Origin: Rhabdothermincola salaria
GTDB taxonomy: Bacteria > Actinomycetota > Acidimicrobiia > Acidimicrobiales > Acidimicrobilacustridaceae
Reading direction: 5' to 3'
Assembly (NCBI RefSeq): GCF_021246445.1
Contig: NZ_JAJQXW010000001.1
Location: 1,196,168-1,260,167 of the forward strand
Length of the DNA stretch: 64,000 bases
Notes under the pieces: model-generated
Database searches by the model: none
Told to the model about the DNA's origin: nothing
Seen by the model: the letters and a program-made list of their open reading frames with translations, nothing else
Shown here: positions 21,203-30,705 of the stretch, one piece after another
Position numbering within the stretch: position 1 is the first letter of the stretch
Layout of the letters: the number at the start of each line of letters is the position of its first letter
Made by a program: the position numbers and the translations under genes

Positions 21203-22489
21203 CTAGTGGCCCGCAGCACCGCTGCCGTCGCGCCGCCGACGCCCGGCGAGCTCGTCGAAGAGCTCCTCGTAGGCGGCGGCCACCGCCGCAGGTGAGGCCC
21301 AACCCTCGACGAACTGCCGGCCCGCCGCACCCATCGCCGACGCCCGGGCCGGATCGTCGAGCAGCTCACCGACCGCACCGGCGAACGCATCAGGGTCCTC
21401 GGGGGGCACGGACAGCCCGGCACCGGCTCGCTCGACCGTGCGCTCCACCTCGGTGCCGGGGTCGACGCTGGCCACCAGCGGCCGGGCGGCGGCGAGAATC
21501 GAGTACAGCTTGGAGGGGACGCTCGACCAGGCCAGACCCCGCTTCAGCGGCACCACGTGCACGTCGGCGGCCGCCAGCACCTCCGGGAGGTGTTCCTTGG
21601 GTTGCATGTCGACGAAGCGGACGTTGGCGAGCCCCCGCGCCTGATCCTCGAGCTCGGGGCGCGCCGCGCCACCGCCGTTGACGACGAACACCACGTCGGG
21701 GCGTTCGTCGGCGAAGCGCCGGGCGGTGGCCAGCACCATGTCGAGGGACTGGGACAGGCCCACGTTCCCGGCGTACATGACGACCTTTCGGCCCACGAGG
21801 TCGTGGTCGCGCCGATAGGCGTTCTCGGTGGGGCCCGGTCGGATCCAGTCGGTGTCGACGAAGTTGGGGATCACCCGCACCTTGGCGGCCTGGCGGGCCG
21901 AGCTCGACGGCTCGACCCCTGCGGTGATCTTGGCCCGGACGTTGTCAGCCAGGTCGTCGGACAGCACGGTCACGGCGTCCGACAGGCGGTAGGTGGTGCG
22001 CTCCAACCACCGGGCGGCGGCGATCACCCGCTCGCCCTGGAGCAGACCGAGCTCCACCGCCACGTCGGGGAAGACGTCCTGGATGTTGAACACGAACGGC
22101 ACCTGTCGGGCCCTAGCCACCGACCACCCGGCTGGCCCCAGCGTCAGCGGCGGCGACATGGAGAGCACGGCATCGGGACGGCGGGACAGCCCCCCGACGA
22201 CGGTCGCCAGGGCGGTGAACCCCCCGAAGGCCAGAGCTCGGGCCGGGATGTTGCGCTTGTCCGTGGGGAACGGGTGCACCCGGCTGACGCGACCCCACCC
22301 GGTGTCCTCGTTGCGGACCAGGCGTCCTTCCCATCCCGGCTCGATGGCATGGCGCTGGTACCAGGGCAGCGACGTCACCACGTGCAGGTGGTGGCCTCGC
22401 TCGACCAACTCGTGGGCGATGCGGGTCATCACCTCACCGGTCGGGGCCACGTCCGGGGCGAAGTGGGGGCACAGCACGACGAGGTTCAC
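21203..22489 (-). CDS. GT4 glycosyltransferase, WcaI/WbuB-like
   Basis: CPHFAPD, SPPL, IQDVFPD, YAGNVGLSQ, SVPSKLYSILAA; start GTG 22489. Confidence 0.9.
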   Translation of the reverse strand: MNLVVLCPHFAPDVAPTGEVMTRIAHELVERGHHLHVVTSLPWYQRHAIEPGWEGRLVRNEDTGWGRVSRVHPFPTDKRNIPARALAFGGFTALATVVGGLSRRPDAVLSMSPPLTLGPAGWSVARARQVPFVFNIQDVFPDVAVELGLLQGERVIAAARWLERTTYRLSDAVTVLSDDLADNVRAKITAGVEPSSSARQAAKVRVIPNFVDTDWIRPGPTENAYRRDHDLVGRKVVMYAGNVGLSQSLDMVLATARRFADERPDVVFVVNGGGAARPELEDQARGLANVRFVDMQPKEHLPEVLAAADVHVVPLKRGLAWSSVPSKLYSILAAARPLVASVDPGTEVERTVERAGAGLSVPPEDPDAFAGAVGELLDDPARASAMGAAGRQFVEGWASPAAVAAAYEELFDELAGRRRRDGSGAAGH

Positions 22490-23676
22490 CGGGGCTCCTG
22501 GTGGGCGGGGTCGATCGGGTGGGACCCGAGGTCGGGTCGGGCGGCGTCGTGGTAGGCGTCGGCCAGCGCGGCGGCGGAGCGGGGCCAGGCGAAGGCGAGC
22601 GCCCGGCGGCGGCCGGCGGCGACGAGGGCCTCGGCCCGTGCCGGGTGGTCGAGCACGTCCGCCAGCGCCGTGGCCCAGGCCGTGGCGTCGTAGGGGTCCA
22701 CGATCACCGCCGCACCGCCGGTCACGTCGGGGAGCGCCCCGGCGTCGGAGGCCACGACGGGGCAGCCGCGGCTCATGGCCTCGACCACGGGCAGGCCGAA
22801 TCCCTCGTAGGCGGAGGGGAAGGCCAGCACCGAGGCACGGCGATAGAGCACCTCGAGGTCGGTCGCGGGGATGCGGCCAGTGCGCACCACGTGCTGTTCG
22901 AGGCCGTAGGCGGCCACCGCGGCGTCGAGGTGCGACTCGGCCGGACCGGCCCGGCCGGTGAGCACCAGCGCCAGGTCCGGACGGGCGCCGACGAGGAGGG
23001 ACAGGGCCCGAACCAGGGTCTCGTGGTTCTTGTGGGCGTAGGTGATGGCCGGGTACAGCACCACCCGCCGACCGGCGAGGCCGAGGCGACCCAGCACCGC
23101 GTCGGGGTCGACCGAGCGGGGCAGCGGGCCGGGCCGATCGACCCCGCTGGGCACCAGACGCAGGTGGCGCGGGTCGACCCCGCAGCGGTCGACGGCGTCG
23201 CGACCCGTGAACGTGGTCAGGGTGATCACGATGCGGGCCCGCCGCAGCGAGGGAGGGGCCACGGCTCGGATGTAGGTGCGCTTCAGCGCCGAGAACCGCT
23301 CGGGGTGAGCCAGGGGTTGCAGGTCGTGGAGGGTGACGACCGACGGCACCGGCGACACCCACGGGATGGTGCCGCCGGCGTGGTGGACGACGTCGAGGCG
23401 CCGACGACGGCTCTCGGCCGCCAACCAGGTGGACTCGGCCAGCACCCGCCGGGGCCGGCTGCGCCCCGAGACGGGCGCCACGACGGTGCGCCAGGCGCCC
23501 GCCAGGTCGGGATGGGCGGACGAGAACGAGCCGTTGACGAACAGGGTCACGTCGAGGTCGCGGGGGGCGGCGTCGGCGAGGGCCTCGAGGAGGCCGACCG
23601 TGTACTCCTCGCTGCCCCCGACGTCGCCGGGGACGAGCCACAGCAGGTTGACACCGACCGCCAGGGCGGCGCTCAC
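22486..23676 (-). CDS. GT4 glycosyltransferase
   Basis: GGSEEY, VVTLHDLQ, YPAITYAHKNH, FPSAYEGFGLPVVEAM; start GTG 23676. Confidence 0.9.
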   Translation of the reverse strand: MSAALAVGVNLLWLVPGDVGGSEEYTVGLLEALADAAPRDLDVTLFVNGSFSSAHPDLAGAWRTVVAPVSGRSRPRRVLAESTWLAAESRRRRLDVVHHAGGTIPWVSPVPSVVTLHDLQPLAHPERFSALKRTYIRAVAPPSLRRARIVITLTTFTGRDAVDRCGVDPRHLRLVPSGVDRPGPLPRSVDPDAVLGRLGLAGRRVVLYPAITYAHKNHETLVRALSLLVGARPDLALVLTGRAGPAESHLDAAVAAYGLEQHVVRTGRIPATDLEVLYRRASVLAFPSAYEGFGLPVVEAMSRGCPVVASDAGALPDVTGGAAVIVDPYDATAWATALADVLDHPARAEALVAAGRRRALAFAWPRSAAALADAYHDAARPDLGSHPIDPAHQEPR

Positions 23677-24794
23677 GACGGCCCTCCTCGGGAGGCTGCC
23701 TCGTGGTACACGGCTTCGAGGGCGGCCGCGGTGGCGGCCCACGAGAAGTGGTCGCGGGCCCGGTCGTGACCGGCCGTGCCCAGCCGGGCCCGACGGTCGG
23801 GATCGTCGAGGAGGCCGCCGAGCGCGTCGCCCAGCCCGCCCACGTCCTCGGGGTCCACGAGGACGCCCGTCTCCCCCGCCACCTCGGCGGTGGCGGTGCC
23901 GGCCGACGTCACGACCGGCGTGCCCTGGGCCATGGCCTCGAGCACGGGGAGGCCGAAGCCCTCCTGGCGGCTCGGGAAGCAGAAGACGTCGGCACCGGCG
24001 TAGGCCGCCCGCAGGTCGTCCTGGGTGAGGAAGCCCACCGGGCGCACGCGCTCCCCCAGCGCCGCCAGGCGGGGCGTCAGGTCCTCGTTCCAGCCCTGGG
24101 GGCCGGCCAGGACCAAGGTGACGTCGCGGCGGGCGAGGGCGGCGAAGGCATCGAGGAGGACAGGGAGGTTCTTGCGAGGCTCGATGGTGCCGGCCCACAG
24201 CACGTAGCGCCCCTCGAGGCCGTGGCGGGCCCGGAAGGCCTCCACCTCGCTCCCGGCGACCGGTCGGGGCTCGATGCCCCAGGGCACCAGGCGGAGGCGA
24301 TCGGGGTCGAAGCCCTGCGCTCGGCACTCGTCGAGCGTGGCCCGGGACGGGGCCATGACGAGGGTGGCGTCGCGCCGGGCCAGATCGATGGCCCGCCGGA
24401 AGAACGCCACGCCGCGCCGGGTGAACTGCGAGGGGTCGTGGGTGAAGGCCAGGTCGTGCACCGTGACCACCAGCGGCGCCGACGGCGGGGGCACTGCCAT
24501 CCCGGTGGCGTGGATCACGTCGACCGGACCGGTGGCCCGCTGCACCGGGGGGCGGCGCAGCCGGTGCCAGGACTCGTAGAGCGCCAGGCGGGGAAGCGGC
24601 AGCGGCACCACCGGAATGGGCGGCACCCAGCTCGTCGCCGGATCGTGGCGGTGGCGGGCGCTCACCCCGATCTGAGCCACCTGCCCGTGCACCTGCAGGG
24701 CGCGCACCGACTCCAGCGCGGCCTGCGCCGTGCCGCCCGGCACGCTGTGCCAGCACTGTTCGAGGGTCACCGCGACCCGTAGCGGTCGGTCCAC
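23673..24794 (-). CDS. GT4 glycosyltransferase
   Basis: EQCWHSVPGGT, VTVHDLAF, GTIEPRKNL, PSRQEGFGLPVLEAM; start GTG 24794. Confidence 0.9.
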   Translation of the reverse strand: MDRPLRVAVTLEQCWHSVPGGTAQAALESVRALQVHGQVAQIGVSARHRHDPATSWVPPIPVVPLPLPRLALYESWHRLRRPPVQRATGPVDVIHATGMAVPPPSAPLVVTVHDLAFTHDPSQFTRRGVAFFRRAIDLARRDATLVMAPSRATLDECRAQGFDPDRLRLVPWGIEPRPVAGSEVEAFRARHGLEGRYVLWAGTIEPRKNLPVLLDAFAALARRDVTLVLAGPQGWNEDLTPRLAALGERVRPVGFLTQDDLRAAYAGADVFCFPSRQEGFGLPVLEAMAQGTPVVTSAGTATAEVAGETGVLVDPEDVGGLGDALGGLLDDPDRRARLGTAGHDRARDHFSWAATAAALEAVYHEAASRGGPS

Positions 24795-24863
24795 GACGGG
24801 CGAGTCTCCCACGCCCGCCGGGACGCCCCGGGACGGCCCCGGCTCGTCGGTAGGGTGGCGGCC

Positions 24864-25853
24864 ATGGTTCCTGTTCCGGGGTTCGAGCCCGATCCGGCGT
24901 TCTGGCGTGACCGCACCGTGTTGGTGACCGGTGGCAACGGGTTCCTCGGTCGAGCGGTGGTCGACCGCCTCCAGACCCGCGGGCCGCGGGCGGTGGTCAC
25001 CCCGACCAGCTCCGACTACGACCTGCGCGACCGCACCGCTGTGGCCTCGATGTTCGCCGACGTCGAGCCGGACCTCGTGATCCACCTCGCCGCCCGGGTG
25101 GGGGGCATCGGGGCCAACATGGCCCGCCCCTCCGACCTCTACCTCGACAACCTCCTGATGGGCACGTACGTGCTCGACGAGGCCCGCCGGCGCGACACCG
25201 AGCAGACCGTGATGCTCGGCACCATCTGCTCGTACCCCAAGTTCACGCCGGTGCCCTTCACCGAGGACTCCCTCTGGCAGGGCTACCCGGAGGAGACCAA
25301 CGCCCCCTACGGGATCGCCAAGCTGGCCCAGCTGGTGCAGCTCCAGGCCAACCGCGCCCAGTACGGCCAACGCGCCGTCTACCTGATGCCCACCAACCTC
25401 TACGGGCCCCGCGACAAGTTCCACCCGGCGGTGTCGCACGTGATCCCCGCCCTCATCAAGAAGACCGTCGACGCCACCGAACGGGGTGACGAGGCCATCG
25501 AGGTCTGGGGCACGGGCTCGGCCAGCCGCGAGTTCCTCTACGTCGACGACGCCGCCGAGGCCATCTTGCTGGCGACCGAGTTCTACGACGACGGCGAGCC
25601 CGTGAACCTCGGTGCCGACCAGGAGCTCCCCATCCGCGATCTGGTCGACATCATCGTCGAGCTGGTCGGCTTCACCGGTGAGGTCCGTTGGGACACCTCG
25701 AAGCCCGACGGCCAGCCCCGCCGGGGCGTCGACGGCAGCCGGGCCCGGGACCGCTTCGGCTTCGTGGCCGGCACCTCGTTCGAGGAGGGGCTGCGCCTCA
25801 CCCTCGACTGGTACCTGGCCAACCGCGAGGAAGCCGAGGCTCGCGCCATCTGA
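24864..25853 (+). CDS. fcl: GDP-L-fucose synthase
   Basis: GGNGFLG, HLAARVGGIGAN, TICSYPK, YGIAK, PTNLYGPRD, SHVIPALI, WGTGSASREFLYVDD, KPDGQPRR. Confidence 0.93.
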   Translation: MVPVPGFEPDPAFWRDRTVLVTGGNGFLGRAVVDRLQTRGPRAVVTPTSSDYDLRDRTAVASMFADVEPDLVIHLAARVGGIGANMARPSDLYLDNLLMGTYVLDEARRRDTEQTVMLGTICSYPKFTPVPFTEDSLWQGYPEETNAPYGIAKLAQLVQLQANRAQYGQRAVYLMPTNLYGPRDKFHPAVSHVIPALIKKTVDATERGDEAIEVWGTGSASREFLYVDDAAEAILLATEFYDDGEPVNLGADQELPIRDLVDIIVELVGFTGEVRWDTSKPDGQPRRGVDGSRARDRFGFVAGTSFEEGLRLTLDWYLANREEAEARAI

Positions 25854-25921: not shown

Positions 25922-26875
<954 letters not shown>

Positions 26876-26882
26876 GGTGCTC

Positions 26883-29537
26883 CTACCGGCCGATGCCCTG
26901 GTGGGTGAAGCCCCGCCGCAGCAGGGCGCCGCGGTCGAGGAGGTTGCGGGCGTCGACGACGTGGCGATCGGTCATGGCGTCGGCGACCTTGTCGAGGTCG
27001 ACCCACTTGAACTGGTCCCACTCGGTGAGCACGGCGAGGACCCGGGCCCCCTGGCAGGGGGCGTAGACATCGTCGCAGACAACCACCTCGGGCACCTCGG
27101 GAAGCGATCCGGTGACGGTGGGGTCGTGGGCGTGGACCTCGGCGCCGGCGGCCACCAGGCGGCGCACGATCTCGACGGCCGGGGAGTCGCGGCGGTCGTC
27201 GGTGTTGGCCTTGAAGGTCAGCCCCCACACCCCGATGCGCACGCCGTCGACCGTGCCGCCGGCGGCCTGGGTGATCTTGGCCACGACCCGGTCGAACTGG
27301 GCGTCGTTGATGCTGAGCACGGCGTCGAGCAGGTCGAAGTCGTAGCCCGCCTCGGTGGCCATGAACCGCAACGCCCTGGTGTCTTTGGGGAAGCAGTTGT
27401 GCGCCACCAACCCGCCGGTGGCGACCACGGTGTGCGGCCCAGGGACCTCGATTGAGTAGACGGGCCCGACGTGGTGCCGGCTTTCGACGCGGGCGACGCG
27501 GGCCCACACCGCCCCCTTGCCCAGTCGGCGATAGCCCGTGGGAGCGATGCGCTTGGCCTGGCGGTCGAGGGCTGCACGGATCTCGAAGGCCTCGCCTTCC
27601 GGGACGAGGAACAGGGCCTGCTCGACCTGATCGGCTCCGGAGATGGTGAGGAAGTACGCGTCGGTGGTGGCTTTGGCGGACCGACCGACCTTCAACCGCG
27701 CCACGATCCCGAGCCCACCGAGCAGCCGGAGCATTCCGTCCGCCAACTCGCGTGAGACGGTTCCGTACTCGAGACACACGCTCGGCCCGCCGTTGACGTA
27801 GGACCAGGATCCATCGCCGTCCCAGAGTCCGCGAAGGAACGCCTTCTGCCGGCTTTCGGGCAACCCCCACAGCACGTCGGGCACCCGCTTCGTGTAGCTC
27901 GTGGACCCCAGCCCGAGGCCCGACTCGAACCATGCGGCGAGCACTCGGGAGCTCACGGCGACCTGCCGCGTCGTCGAGACCCGGCGGGCCTCGGCCTTCA
28001 CGCCCTGGCCTTCCCAGTAGGCACGCACTCTCTCGACCAGGTCGTGCTCCAGGTGAGGATGGAAGCTGCACGCTACGCGTCGCCGCGATCCGTCCCGGGT
28101 GACGTGGCCCTCGGCGGCGTAGATGCCGAGCATCCACCACAGCTCGTCACCATCGGGCACCAAGGCCGGCACGTAGGTCCCGTTCGTCGTCGTGCCGAGC
28201 AGTGCTCCGTCGACGTCCATCCCCAGGCGCTCCAGCTCGTCCAGGCGCAGGGTGCCGGAGCGCAGCACGTCCCGCCGACGCCCGGCGGGAAGTTCGTCGG
28301 CGACCTCGAAAAGCCGCTGCCGTTGGACGGCGGACAGTCGACAGATCACCTGTGACGGATCGAGGTCGGCGTGTCCCAACGTGGCGGTCAGGTCATGGAT
28401 GAGGAAGTGGTCTGGCGCGAGGGGCGCTCCCTGGGCGATCGGGAGCCAGTCATCGGTGGTGAGATCATCGGCCAGGCGCAGACCGGTGCGCTCGGGATCG
28501 ACGCCGTCGCCGACCACCATCGGGTGGTCGGCGGTCACAGTGAGGCGCCGTCCCATCTTGGTGACGATGTCGACGACCACGCCGTCGTAGTCACGCACCG
28601 TGAGCTGTGCCACAGGGAAGAACTCAGGGGCCGGGTCCCCGGGGTTCCACGCCAGGACCTCGACACCGGCGATCCCCCGGGACTCCACCTCGCAGGCAAG
28701 CTGCTCGAAGGTGATGAGGGACGTCTGCCAGCCCCGGCGCACGAGGACGGTCTCGGCGCCCTCGAAGCAACTTCCACCCCATCCGGGGCCGGGGCGCAGG
28801 AACTTGTTGCCGATTCGGGTGTCGTACCCCATGCCCAGCATCACGTCGTCGGCATCGGCGCCGAGGGCCTCGCACAGCGCCGCCACCGCGTTCACGAACG
28901 ACAGCTTCATGGCCAGGAAGGCGTTCGAGGCGTACTTGATCGTCTCGGCCGACGCCGGGTCGGTGACCATCAGCGGCGCCGGCACCCCCAGGTACAACGA
29001 GGCCACCCGGATGGCCGCCCCCTGGTCGTCGGAACCGATCACCACCCGGTCCGGGTTCAAGAAGTCGTGCACCGCCGAGCCCTCGCGCAGGAACTCCGGG
29101 TTCGACACCACGTAGAGGTCCGACCGCCCCAGGGCCTGCTCCACCCGTCGGGTCGATCCCACCGGCACCGTGGACTTGTTGACCACCACCGCCTCGGCCG
29201 GCAGGTGCGGGGCGATCTGCTCGGCGGCCGCCTCCAGGTAGGTGAGGTCGGCCGAACCGTCCGCCCCCTGCGGGGTCGGCACGCACAGGTATGCGAACTG
29301 GGCGTCCGCGGTGGCGGCACCCACGTCGGTGGTGAAGCGCAACCGGCCCGCGTCCATCCCCTCACGGACGATCTCCTCCAACCCCGGCTCGTGGATCGGG
29401 ATCCGCCCCTGCTGCAGCGACGCCACCTTGTCCGGGTCGATGTCGACGCACACCACCGTGTGCCCCAGGCTCGAGAAGCACGCACCCGTGGTGAGCCCGA
29501 CGTAGCCGGTCCCGATCACCGCGATCGTCTGGTCCAC
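26883..29537 (-). CDS. ugd: UDP-glucose/GDP-mannose 6-dehydrogenase precursor containing an intein (884 aa; 426 aa after splicing)
   Basis: [45 protein letters not shown]|intein|[24 protein letters not shown]; start GTG 29537. Confidence 0.95.
27396..28769 (-). mobile_element. Intein with LAGLIDADG homing endonuclease (458 aa) in ugd
   Basis: Block [11 protein letters not shown]; block [10 protein letters not shown]; endonuclease motifs [10 protein letters not shown] and [11 protein letters not shown]; block [18 protein letters not shown]; block F VYSIEV; terminal HN followed by extein Cys. Confidence 0.95.
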
Positions 29538-29571
29538 TGAAGTTCCGCCTTCGGTCGTGGGTGGCCGCTCG

Positions 29572-30705
29572 TCAGCCGCACGAGACGCCAGGAGGCGCCT
29601 CGGGCAGGAACGAGTAGCTGGTGGTGGTGGACGTGGTGCTCGGCTCCCCGATCCCAGGGGTCGCGGGCTCCGCCGGGGCCTCGGGTTCGGTGCCGGGCTC
29701 GCCGGTCGGATCCTCGGGCTCGGGTGGGGCTGCACCCCGGAAGATCTCGAAGATCGGCTCGGCTGCGGTCGCGTTCAGCTCGACGACGCTCGCCGCCCCC
29801 ACGAAGACCGGTTCGCCCGGGACCCGGTAGGTGGCCAGGCTCTGCGGGTCGAAGTCGCGGAACTGCGTGCCCAGCGAGACGATGTCGGAGACCGTGTACT
29901 CGCTGTCGAGGGTCACGTTCTGCTGGGCCACGCCGATGAGGTCCTGGAGCACGAACGGGTTGCGCACCCCACGGGCGACGGCCTTCTCGAGCGCCGCGGT
30001 GATGAACAGCTGCTGGCGATCGATGCGGCCGAAGTCACCCGTCGGGTCGGTGCGCCACCGACCGTCGACCTTGATCTCGAACGACCGGGAGCGGGCGAAG
30101 GCCAGGGCCTGGTCGGCATCGAGGGTGACGCAGCCGGGGTCGTACTGGAAGAGCCCCGTCTTCTGGTCCCGTGCTTCCCACGGGAAGTAGACCGGCACGC
30201 CCCCGACGGCGTCGACGAGCGACCGGAAGCCGGCGAAGTCGACCATGGCGTAGTGGTTGATCGGGATGTCGAAGTTGAGGCGGATGGTCTCGATCAGGCG
30301 CTCGGGACCGCCCAGCGCCAACGCCGCGTTGATGCGATCGCGTCCCCCGCCCGCCAGCGGGACGTAGAGGTCCCGCGGGATGGACAAGATGGCGGCTTCC
30401 TTGGTGCGAGGGTCGATGCGCAGGACCATGATCGTGTCGGTGTTGAGCGAGCTGGTGCGCCCGAACAGCACCGGGTCCCCCTCCTCGAGGCCGTCGCCGT
30501 TGTCGATGCCGACGAGCAGCACGTTCTGGGGCTCACCCCCCTCGACCGGCTCGGAGAGGGCCCGACCGAGATCGATGCGCGGCAGATCGCTCGCCTGGGC
30601 GTAGGTCCAGGTCAGACCGCCGGCGGCGACGAGGCACACGATGACGAGCAACGAGTTGAACGTGAGCAGCAGACGCTGCGACCACGTGCGGTGGGGGCGG
30701 CGCAC
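29572..30705 (-). CDS. LCP (LytR-CpsA-Psr) family glycopolymer transferase
   Basis: N-terminal TM, NVLLVGID, TDTIMVL, SIPRDL, RINAA, DFAGF..LVDAVGGV, FARSR, DFGRIDRQQ; start GTG 30705. Confidence 0.93.
   Translation of the reverse strand: MRRPHRTWSQRLLLTFNSLLVIVCLVAAGGLTWTYAQASDLPRIDLGRALSEPVEGGEPQNVLLVGIDNGDGLEEGDPVLFGRTSSLNTDTIMVLRIDPRTKEAAILSIPRDLYVPLAGGGRDRINAALALGGPERLIETIRLNFDIPINHYAMVDFAGFRSLVDAVGGVPVYFPWEARDQKTGLFQYDPGCVTLDADQALAFARSRSFEIKVDGRWRTDPTGDFGRIDRQQLFITAALEKAVARGVRNPFVLQDLIGVAQQNVTLDSEYTVSDIVSLGTQFRDFDPQSLATYRVPGEPVFVGAASVVELNATAAEPIFEIFRGAAPPEPEDPTGEPGTEPEAPAEPATPGIGEPSTTSTTTSYSFLPEAPPGVSCG

Follow-up and report, generated by a model that had tools for sequence, protein, structure and literature searches.

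A LAGLIDADG intein of the known UDP-glucose dehydrogenase allele directly before the catalytic cysteine codon of ugd in Rhabdothermincola salaria

The stretch of DNA analyzed here, called the window, comprises 64,000 nucleotides of Rhabdothermincola salaria (Actinomycetota, Acidimicrobiia; contig NZ_JAJQXW010000001.1, positions 1,196,168 to 1,260,167), and its ugd gene encodes a UDP-glucose dehydrogenase (UGDH) interrupted by a long in-frame insert. The insert is very probably an intact class 1 intein with a LAGLIDADG homing endonuclease, belonging to a known UGDH intein allele; it follows Ser256 and immediately precedes the catalytic Cys in the genome's single UGDH-type gene. As judged from the sequence, the intein appears to be genuine and intact, and it is probably active. 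All positions given below are those of the window.

The ugd precursor gene covers positions 26883..29537 of the minus strand, with 884 codons and a stop. It is contained in a 950-amino-acid open frame (26883..29735, minus strand) that continues upstream of the GTG codon at 29535-29537 to position 29735, and the start was placed by homology at this GTG because the solved UGDHs align from residue 5. The N-extein of 256 amino acids (28770..29537, minus strand) includes the NAD-binding domain and most of the UGDH central domain and ends in GPGWGGS. The intein of 458 amino acids (27396..28769, minus strand) consists of a Hint splicing domain into which a LAGLIDADG endonuclease domain with two motifs is inserted, and the C-extein of 170 amino acids (26886..27395, minus strand) holds the remainder of the central domain together with the UDP-binding domain. 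The insert begins with CFEGAETV (first codon 28767-28769, minus strand) and ends with GLVAHN (last codon 27396-27398), after which the enzyme resumes with CFPKD, the codon of Cys+1 being 27393..27395 on the minus strand. Counted from the GTG, removal of the insert leaves a UGDH of 426 amino acids. The ends of the insert located in the translated frame agree to the base with those in an earlier note made from the sequence of this DNA, and the features that it had read there, the CFEGAETV start, the TxxH motif (TADH), two LAGLIDADG motifs, VYSI, the HN end and the split GGS|CFPKD, were all found.

Pfam recognized the three UGDH domains in the precursor (UDPG_MGDP_dh N, central and C), the central one being split, and the NCBIfam model of nucleotide-sugar dehydrogenases, TIGR03026, gave 432 bits against a cut-off of 189.8. 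The equivalog models TuaD and AglM scored the unspliced precursor at 417.9 and 356.4, with cut-offs of 700 and 670, respectively. In an alignment to UGDH 4a7p of Sphingomonas, the end of the N-extein (GGSC-F) falls on chain residues 270-273 and the start of the C-extein on 271-272, and because of this the intein is placed directly before the active-site Cys, with its own Cys1 mimicking that residue. Precursor residue 257, the intein Cys1, occupies the place later taken by Cys715 (+1) and aligns with the catalytic Cys of the solved UGDHs. It corresponds to Cys276 of human UGDH, as counted from the listed alignment ranges, and covalent catalysis by Cys276 is established according to PMC3265891. 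The splice-junction nucleophile and the catalytic nucleophile of UGDH would then be the same Cys, as the earlier note had stated. The catalytic residues of both intein and enzyme are all in place across the 884 open codons.

The conserved blocks of the intein, all on the minus strand, are the block A nucleophile Cys1 (28767..28769), block B with T79-A-D-H82 (TxxH; 28524..28535), LAGLIDADG motif 1 from L210 to G221 (28107..28142), LAGLIDADG motif 2 from A310 to S321 (27807..27842), block F from V437 to H446 (27432..27461; VYSI is V437-I440) and block G with the penultimate His457 and the terminal Asn458 (27396..27401). Alignment A1 included 25 full-length inteins, the window copy and 24 locus copies 47-70% identical to it. 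Cys1, Thr79, His82, Glu220-Gly221, Asp319-Gly320 and Ser439 were invariant in all 25, Glu220 and Asp319 being the acidic residues of the two LAGLIDADG motifs, and His457 and Asn458 were nearly invariant. The roles of the splicing positions, including the block B TxxH, follow a review (PMC4031507).

The fourth position of block F is most often Asp in inteins (PMC4031507), and here it is Ser439. The earlier note had pointed out VYSI in place of the common VYDL; the motif is indeed present, and it is not peculiar to this copy. VYS was found in 11 of the 12 copies compared, Haloplanus and Methanothermococcus included, and the one remaining, an outgroup copy, has VLS, the Ser being common to all 12, archaeal ones included. 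Some variation was observed at the other end of the relatives' inteins: several of them (e.g. L035, L038, L045, P0039 and P0092) terminate in HQ, GQ, SN, QQ or GN, not HN. The references of PMC4031507 include work on splicing by inteins that have Gln at the C-terminus. Also the length varies, the Solirubrobacterales-type inteins of loci L040, L042, L043, L047, L053 and L062 having 479-481 amino acids with extra segments in the N-lobe and linker that are absent from the other copies.

Three family models were above their cut-offs in the intein: LAGLIDADG_3 of Pfam (59.2 bits, cut-off 22.5), intein_Nterm of NCBIfam (TIGR01445; 28.5, cut-off 24.5) and intein_Cterm of NCBIfam (TIGR01443; 24.5, cut-off 15.6). 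Intein_splicing of Pfam reached 32.9, just under its cut-off of 35.8. These hidden Markov model matches bear out the assignment as a LAGLIDADG intein made in the earlier note. Mean pairwise identity was 0.53 and 0.65 in the two endonuclease halves, 0.52 and 0.60 in the two Hint lobes and 0.37 in the linker. The endonuclease domain appears as conserved as the splicing lobes, and because of this conservation and the invariance of Glu220 and Asp319 it is probably under selection.

The AlphaFold2 model of the intein built from alignment A1 had a mean predicted local distance difference test score (pLDDT) of 92.5 and a predicted template modelling score (pTM) of 0.92. When the model was compared to the PDB with Foldseek, PI-PkoII (2cw7) was found first (E 1.4e-25, TMq 0.71), followed by the TliVMA intein, PI-PfuI and PI-SceI, and then by free LAGLIDADG enzymes such as I-DmoI; also I-Tsp061I was matched. 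The fold of the endonuclease domain accordingly matches I-DmoI, I-Tsp061I and the endonuclease domains of PI-SceI and PI-PfuI. A profile search of the PDB sequences likewise placed 2cw7 first (4.6e-20). PI-PkoII, intein 2 of the Thermococcus kodakarensis DNA polymerase, shares the Hint domain, the linker region and the LAGLIDADG endonuclease and is the best solved relative, but it has another host protein and insertion site and only 16% identity, and it is a structural analogue in the intein superfamily belonging to another allele. Cys at position 1, a TxxH block B, His-Asn followed by Cys and a Hint fold characterize the insert as a class 1 intein, and the two motifs with their acidic residues together with the endonuclease fold characterize a single-chain LAGLIDADG endonuclease.

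On this anatomy, the 884-amino-acid precursor would be inactive, its active-site loop GGS-C-FPKD being split. Cys1 would perform an N-S acyl shift, the N-extein would be taken over by Cys+1, the future catalytic thiol, and cyclisation of Asn458 would yield the 426-amino-acid UGDH and a free endonuclease of 458 amino acids. The endonuclease would probably cut intein-free ugd alleles at the conserved coding site of GGS-CFPKD, and the intein would be copied in. The patchy spread of the intein within Actinomycetota could be explained by such homing into intein-free alleles.

When the intein region was used as query in a word-indexed search, 8000 proteins were scored and 1577 of them matched at E ≤ 1e-3, well above anything that chance would give. 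UGDH domains were present in all of the 120 best matches, which were 49-88% identical in the intein, and the named ones among them were labelled Acidimicrobiia, Acidimicrobiales, Iamia or Ilumatobacteraceae. The 1849 hits of an exhaustive phmmer search against cluster representatives, among which 68 had E ≤ 1e-30, included a Haloplanus cluster (P0140; E 5.4e-58) and a Methanothermococcus cluster (P0176; E 1.1e-33), both aligned over query residues 1-458. Among ten distant matches of about 900 amino acids that were looked up, one cluster was of Haloplanus salinus and one of Methanothermococcus. Their inteins were 36% (BLAST) or 34% (alignment) and 25% identical to the window copy, respectively.

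The junctions were surveyed from proteins and locus open reading frames in which the N-extein match ends at its last residue and the C-extein match starts at its first. The 197 rows, a few of them duplicates, included 171 with and 26 without an insert. In all 171 insert-bearing rows, those of Haloplanus salinus and Methanothermococcus included, GGS precedes the insert, the first residue of which is Cys, and C[FL]PKD comes after it; the boundaries are partly imposed by BLAST to the window exteins, and the printed junction residues confirm the site.

The insert is therefore, by sequence, to be counted as a member of the already known UGDH intein allele, the euryarchaeal 'udp' or 'UDP-GlcDH' allele. 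It shares with this allele the host enzyme, the insertion point GGS|C...HN|CFPKD, the double LAGLIDADG domain, the Ser for Asp in block F and the size (454-478 amino acids in the archaeal and other outgroup copies, 458 here). It differs in that the copies are only 25-34% identical, that the actinobacterial copies form a clade of their own and that the hosts are high-GC Actinomycetota, mostly metagenome-assembled genomes (MAGs). The name 'Mja UDP GD' is presumably the InBase name of the allele.

UDP-glucose dehydrogenase is named among intein hosts in a 2010 review, and Soucy et al. (2014, PMC4071816) describe the 'udp' allele in Halobacteria with homologues in methanococci, with Dictyoglomus thermophilum and a Fervidibacteria bacterium as the only bacterial hosts listed. 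Novikova et al. (2016, PMC4760082) place UDP-GlcDH with ten inteins in the top 15 of archaeal intein hosts and not in the top 15 of bacterial ones. No paper on actinobacterial UGDH inteins was found in open-access PMC and bioRxiv, one of the two supplementary files of PMC4760082 being outside this coverage. The novelty implied in the earlier note is reduced: the same allele is known in archaea, bacterial hosts were listed in 2014 (PMC4071816), and many Actinomycetota have the intein. The actinobacterial clade is novel in its members only and adds a bacterial group, mainly of uncultured organisms, to a classic intein allele.

The intein is widespread but rare within Actinomycetota. In 401 genomes sampled from the window's class, including the window genome G000, 67 matched the intein at E ≤ 1e-5, and only five (G000, G163, G183, G239 and G370) had a strong match next to a ugd extein. 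The figure of 67 was rejected as a measure of occupancy, as all but five match weakly (E 1e-20 or worse), via the endonuclease domain and in frames of other sizes. These weak matches were read as other inteins, the one checked being in the window genome itself: a second intein in the DnaB replicative helicase, in an 803-amino-acid frame around contig C2:474051-474425 (L002), with 340 bits for DnaB_C, 72 bits for Intein_splicing and 66 bits for LAGLIDADG_3. With the N-extein as query, 324 of the 401 class genomes had a ugd match at E ≤ 1e-40, which gives about five occupied sites in 324. In the window's own family, ugd was found in four of the nine other genomes, and all four had frames of 428-436 amino acids with an empty site. 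Four genomes counted in the class tallies (G212, G254, G275 and G389) are flagged as unpublished; they have no cognate intein and are in none of the alignments or trees. The phylum-wide sample had an intein match at E ≤ 1e-25 in two of 401 genomes (G000 and G759). A pattern scan with one genome per species found at least 36 loci, all in MAGs, labelled as Acidimicrobiales, Microthrixaceae, Acidimicrobiaceae, Solirubrobacterales, Nitriliruptoraceae, Egibacteraceae or more loosely. For annotation this means that a ugd gene of about 880 amino acids in Acidimicrobiia or their relatives should be read as an intein precursor and not as a fusion.

In 26 relatives the empty site codes for the same GPG[WF]GGSC[FL]PKD, and it shares 28-37 of 42 nucleotides with the joined flanks of the window. 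Shortened inteins of 175-395 amino acids were present in 11 relatives, and in nine of these one or both LAGLIDADG motifs were not found by pattern; the deletions are internal, between about residues 117 and 295, or larger. In P0009 a mini-intein of 302 amino acids, with its retained parts 88% identical to the window copy, lies in an extein 97% (N) and 95% (C) identical to that of the window, which shows that full-length and degenerate alleles coexist in very close kin. With full-length, endonuclease-deleted and empty alleles among close relatives, ugd clearly illustrates the homing cycle for a metabolic gene. In two MAG loci, L057 and L059, the intein-bearing ugd is split into two or three frames, which could be decay or an indel error of the assembly.

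The element might also be a domesticated conditional switch, in which splicing would be restrained, e.g. through a disulfide between Cys1 and Cys+1 in oxidising conditions, gating UDP-glucuronate and UDP-xylose for an envelope gene cluster. The gene context can be cited in favour of this idea. The uxs gene, encoding UDP-glucuronate decarboxylase (25922..26875, minus strand), starts 7 nucleotides past the ugd stop, directly downstream as the earlier note had it, and its product matches human UDP-glucuronate decarboxylase at 3.4e-111; ugd and uxs probably form one operon. The genome (3.9 Mb, seven contigs, 97.8% complete) contains a single further gene of the dehydrogenase family, the product of which is 33% identical and scores best as a UDP-ManNAc dehydrogenase, and a second UGDH-type gene was not found in this 97.8% complete assembly. 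Because ugd is thus the only UGDH-type gene, the supply of UDP-glucuronate probably depends on splicing. Both splicing nucleophiles are Cys, Cys+1 being also the catalytic thiol of the enzyme, and disulfides of active-site Cys are reported to make splicing sensitive to oxidation in other inteins (PMC4031507), by which precedent redox-gated splicing is plausible. If splicing were conditional, a selfish element would be linked to the supply of envelope sugars. However, kin can do without the intein, which is absent from 319 of the 324 sampled ugd genomes, all four of the same family included, and the conserved endonuclease fits a selfish element. The persistence of endonuclease-less minis in relatives, which could be taken to favour a switch, is equally expected from an ordinary homing cycle. 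A domesticated switch is hence considered unlikely.

The intein tree was constructed from 50 full-length rows, 31 loci and 19 proteins; it does not include the minis, the broken loci L057 and L059, the partial copies L004, L052 and L065 and, because of size, most of P0006-P0120. All 41 actinobacterial rows formed one clade with a Shimodaira-Hasegawa-like approximate likelihood ratio test (SH-aLRT) value of 100 and a stem of 0.84 changes per site, and within it a Nitriliruptoria-type clade, a Solirubrobacterales-type clade and an Acidimicrobiia-type group were distinguished. The nine outgroup rows, Haloplanus and Methanothermococcus included, fell outside. The extein tree had 76 rows, the same 50 together with 26 intein-free alleles from the 30 best N-extein loci, and is biased to the window's order. 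Here bearers and non-bearers are interspersed, with at least 15 changes between presence and absence, 12 of them forced by starred branches. The local clades of the two trees largely agree, as in the group of the window copy, P0002, P0005, P0004, L032 and L033, and an example of discordance is L035, grouping with L036 by intein and with L076 and L054 by extein.

Within the Acidimicrobiia-type group, intein identity averaged 0.55 against 0.68 for the extein, the intein being at least as similar as the extein in 1% of 325 pairs (r = 0.65). Between the Acidimicrobiia-type and Nitriliruptoria-type copies the relation was reversed, with 0.53 for the intein and 0.44 for the extein, and the intein was the more similar in all 156 pairs. 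Between the Acidimicrobiia-type and Solirubrobacterales-type copies both values were 0.47. Against the outgroups the intein had 0.28 and the extein 0.42, while the intein identities among the actinobacterial groups were 0.47-0.55. As all 156 of the Acidimicrobiia-type to Nitriliruptoria-type pairs show higher conservation in the intein than in the extein, movement between classes within the phylum is supported. The results can be read as a spread of the intein among divergent ugd genes within the phylum after their divergence, the link to the archaeal copies being old.

Several points weigh against an active, homing intein with this history. Splicing and DNA cleavage are predicted from conserved residues only, and the Ser in block F, where Asp is the commonest assisting residue according to PMC4031507, may make the kinetics unusual. 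Both trees are quick LG+G4 trees, with warnings on long branches and composition for the outgroups. The agreement between intein and extein trees could also reflect vertical descent with repeated precise loss instead of frequent homing. The groups compared for identity were set by record names and tree position, not by an independent taxonomy, and the cross-class reversal could come partly from non-orthologous ugd genes or from saturation. The earlier note had itself taken a wide distribution in actinobacteria with congruent trees as speaking against transfer and novelty. The intein proved widespread and its local clades mostly agree with those of the extein, so that this pattern was largely found, with some discordance remaining.

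That the intein entered the lineage recently and directly from a euryarchaeon, in line with the inter-domain transfer suggested in the earlier note, is very improbable. The same insertion site and the clearly homologous inteins in Haloplanus and Methanothermococcus would agree with such a transfer, as would the diversity of the udp allele, which crosses class and domain boundaries (Soucy et al. 2014, PMC4071816). Against it, the single actinobacterial clade excludes every outgroup, identity to the outgroups is low in comparison to that among the actinobacterial groups, and the nearest intein relatives among the best 120 matches and the at least 36 loci are all MAGs of Actinomycetota. For these reasons any inter-domain crossing would predate the spread within the phylum, in whichever direction it went, the intein tree being unrooted.

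Base composition gave a mixed picture. The overall GC content was 0.693 in the intein and 0.705 in the extein, with no sign of foreign origin. At third codon positions (GC3) the intein had 0.86 and the extein 0.95, with 0.93-0.97 across both exteins, uxs and a divergent GDP-fucose-synthase-like gene (24855-25853); the lower value of the intein is only suggestive of foreign origin. The first ten codons of the C-extein (27366-27395 in the window; the same place in L003-L067) had a GC3 of 0.76 in 36 intein-bearing alleles, in comparison to at least 0.91 further from the junction and 0.91 in 26 empty alleles (Mann-Whitney p = 3e-6, which is overstated because the rows are kin). On the N-side, GC3 near the junction was 0.79 in the intein-bearing and 0.80 in the empty alleles, and an intein-specific dip was ruled out there; only the C-side dip is specific to the intein. 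It may represent a short co-conversion tract carried by homing. A broader scenario combines these threads: a distinct clade of Actinomycetota UGDH inteins still homing between the ugd genes of different classes, with the AT-richer C-side codons as its co-conversion mark and with the block F Ser and the Cys1/Cys+1 pair making splicing conditional, so that a selfish element would gate envelope nucleotide sugars. Taken as a whole, this scenario is unlikely.

A dead insertion, that is a pseudogene or a non-splicing precursor with UDP-glucuronate made otherwise or not at all, is hardly credible: the Ser in place of the block F Asp and the several frames of ugd in L057 and L059 could hint at it, but the window gene is open across 884 codons and lacks none of the catalytic residues of intein or enzyme, the Ser is invariant in the 25 actinobacterial copies and shared by all 12 copies compared and so is conserved, not decayed, the extein GC3 of 0.95-0.97 is like that of the neighbouring genes, and no other UGDH-type gene is present in the 97.8% complete genome.

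Elsewhere in the window, at 22486-25439 on the minus strand, long overlapping frames of 756 and 588 amino acids were observed in different reading frames, both with glycosyltransferase-like ends. Their upstream parts are probably spurious extensions, which are common in high-GC DNA.

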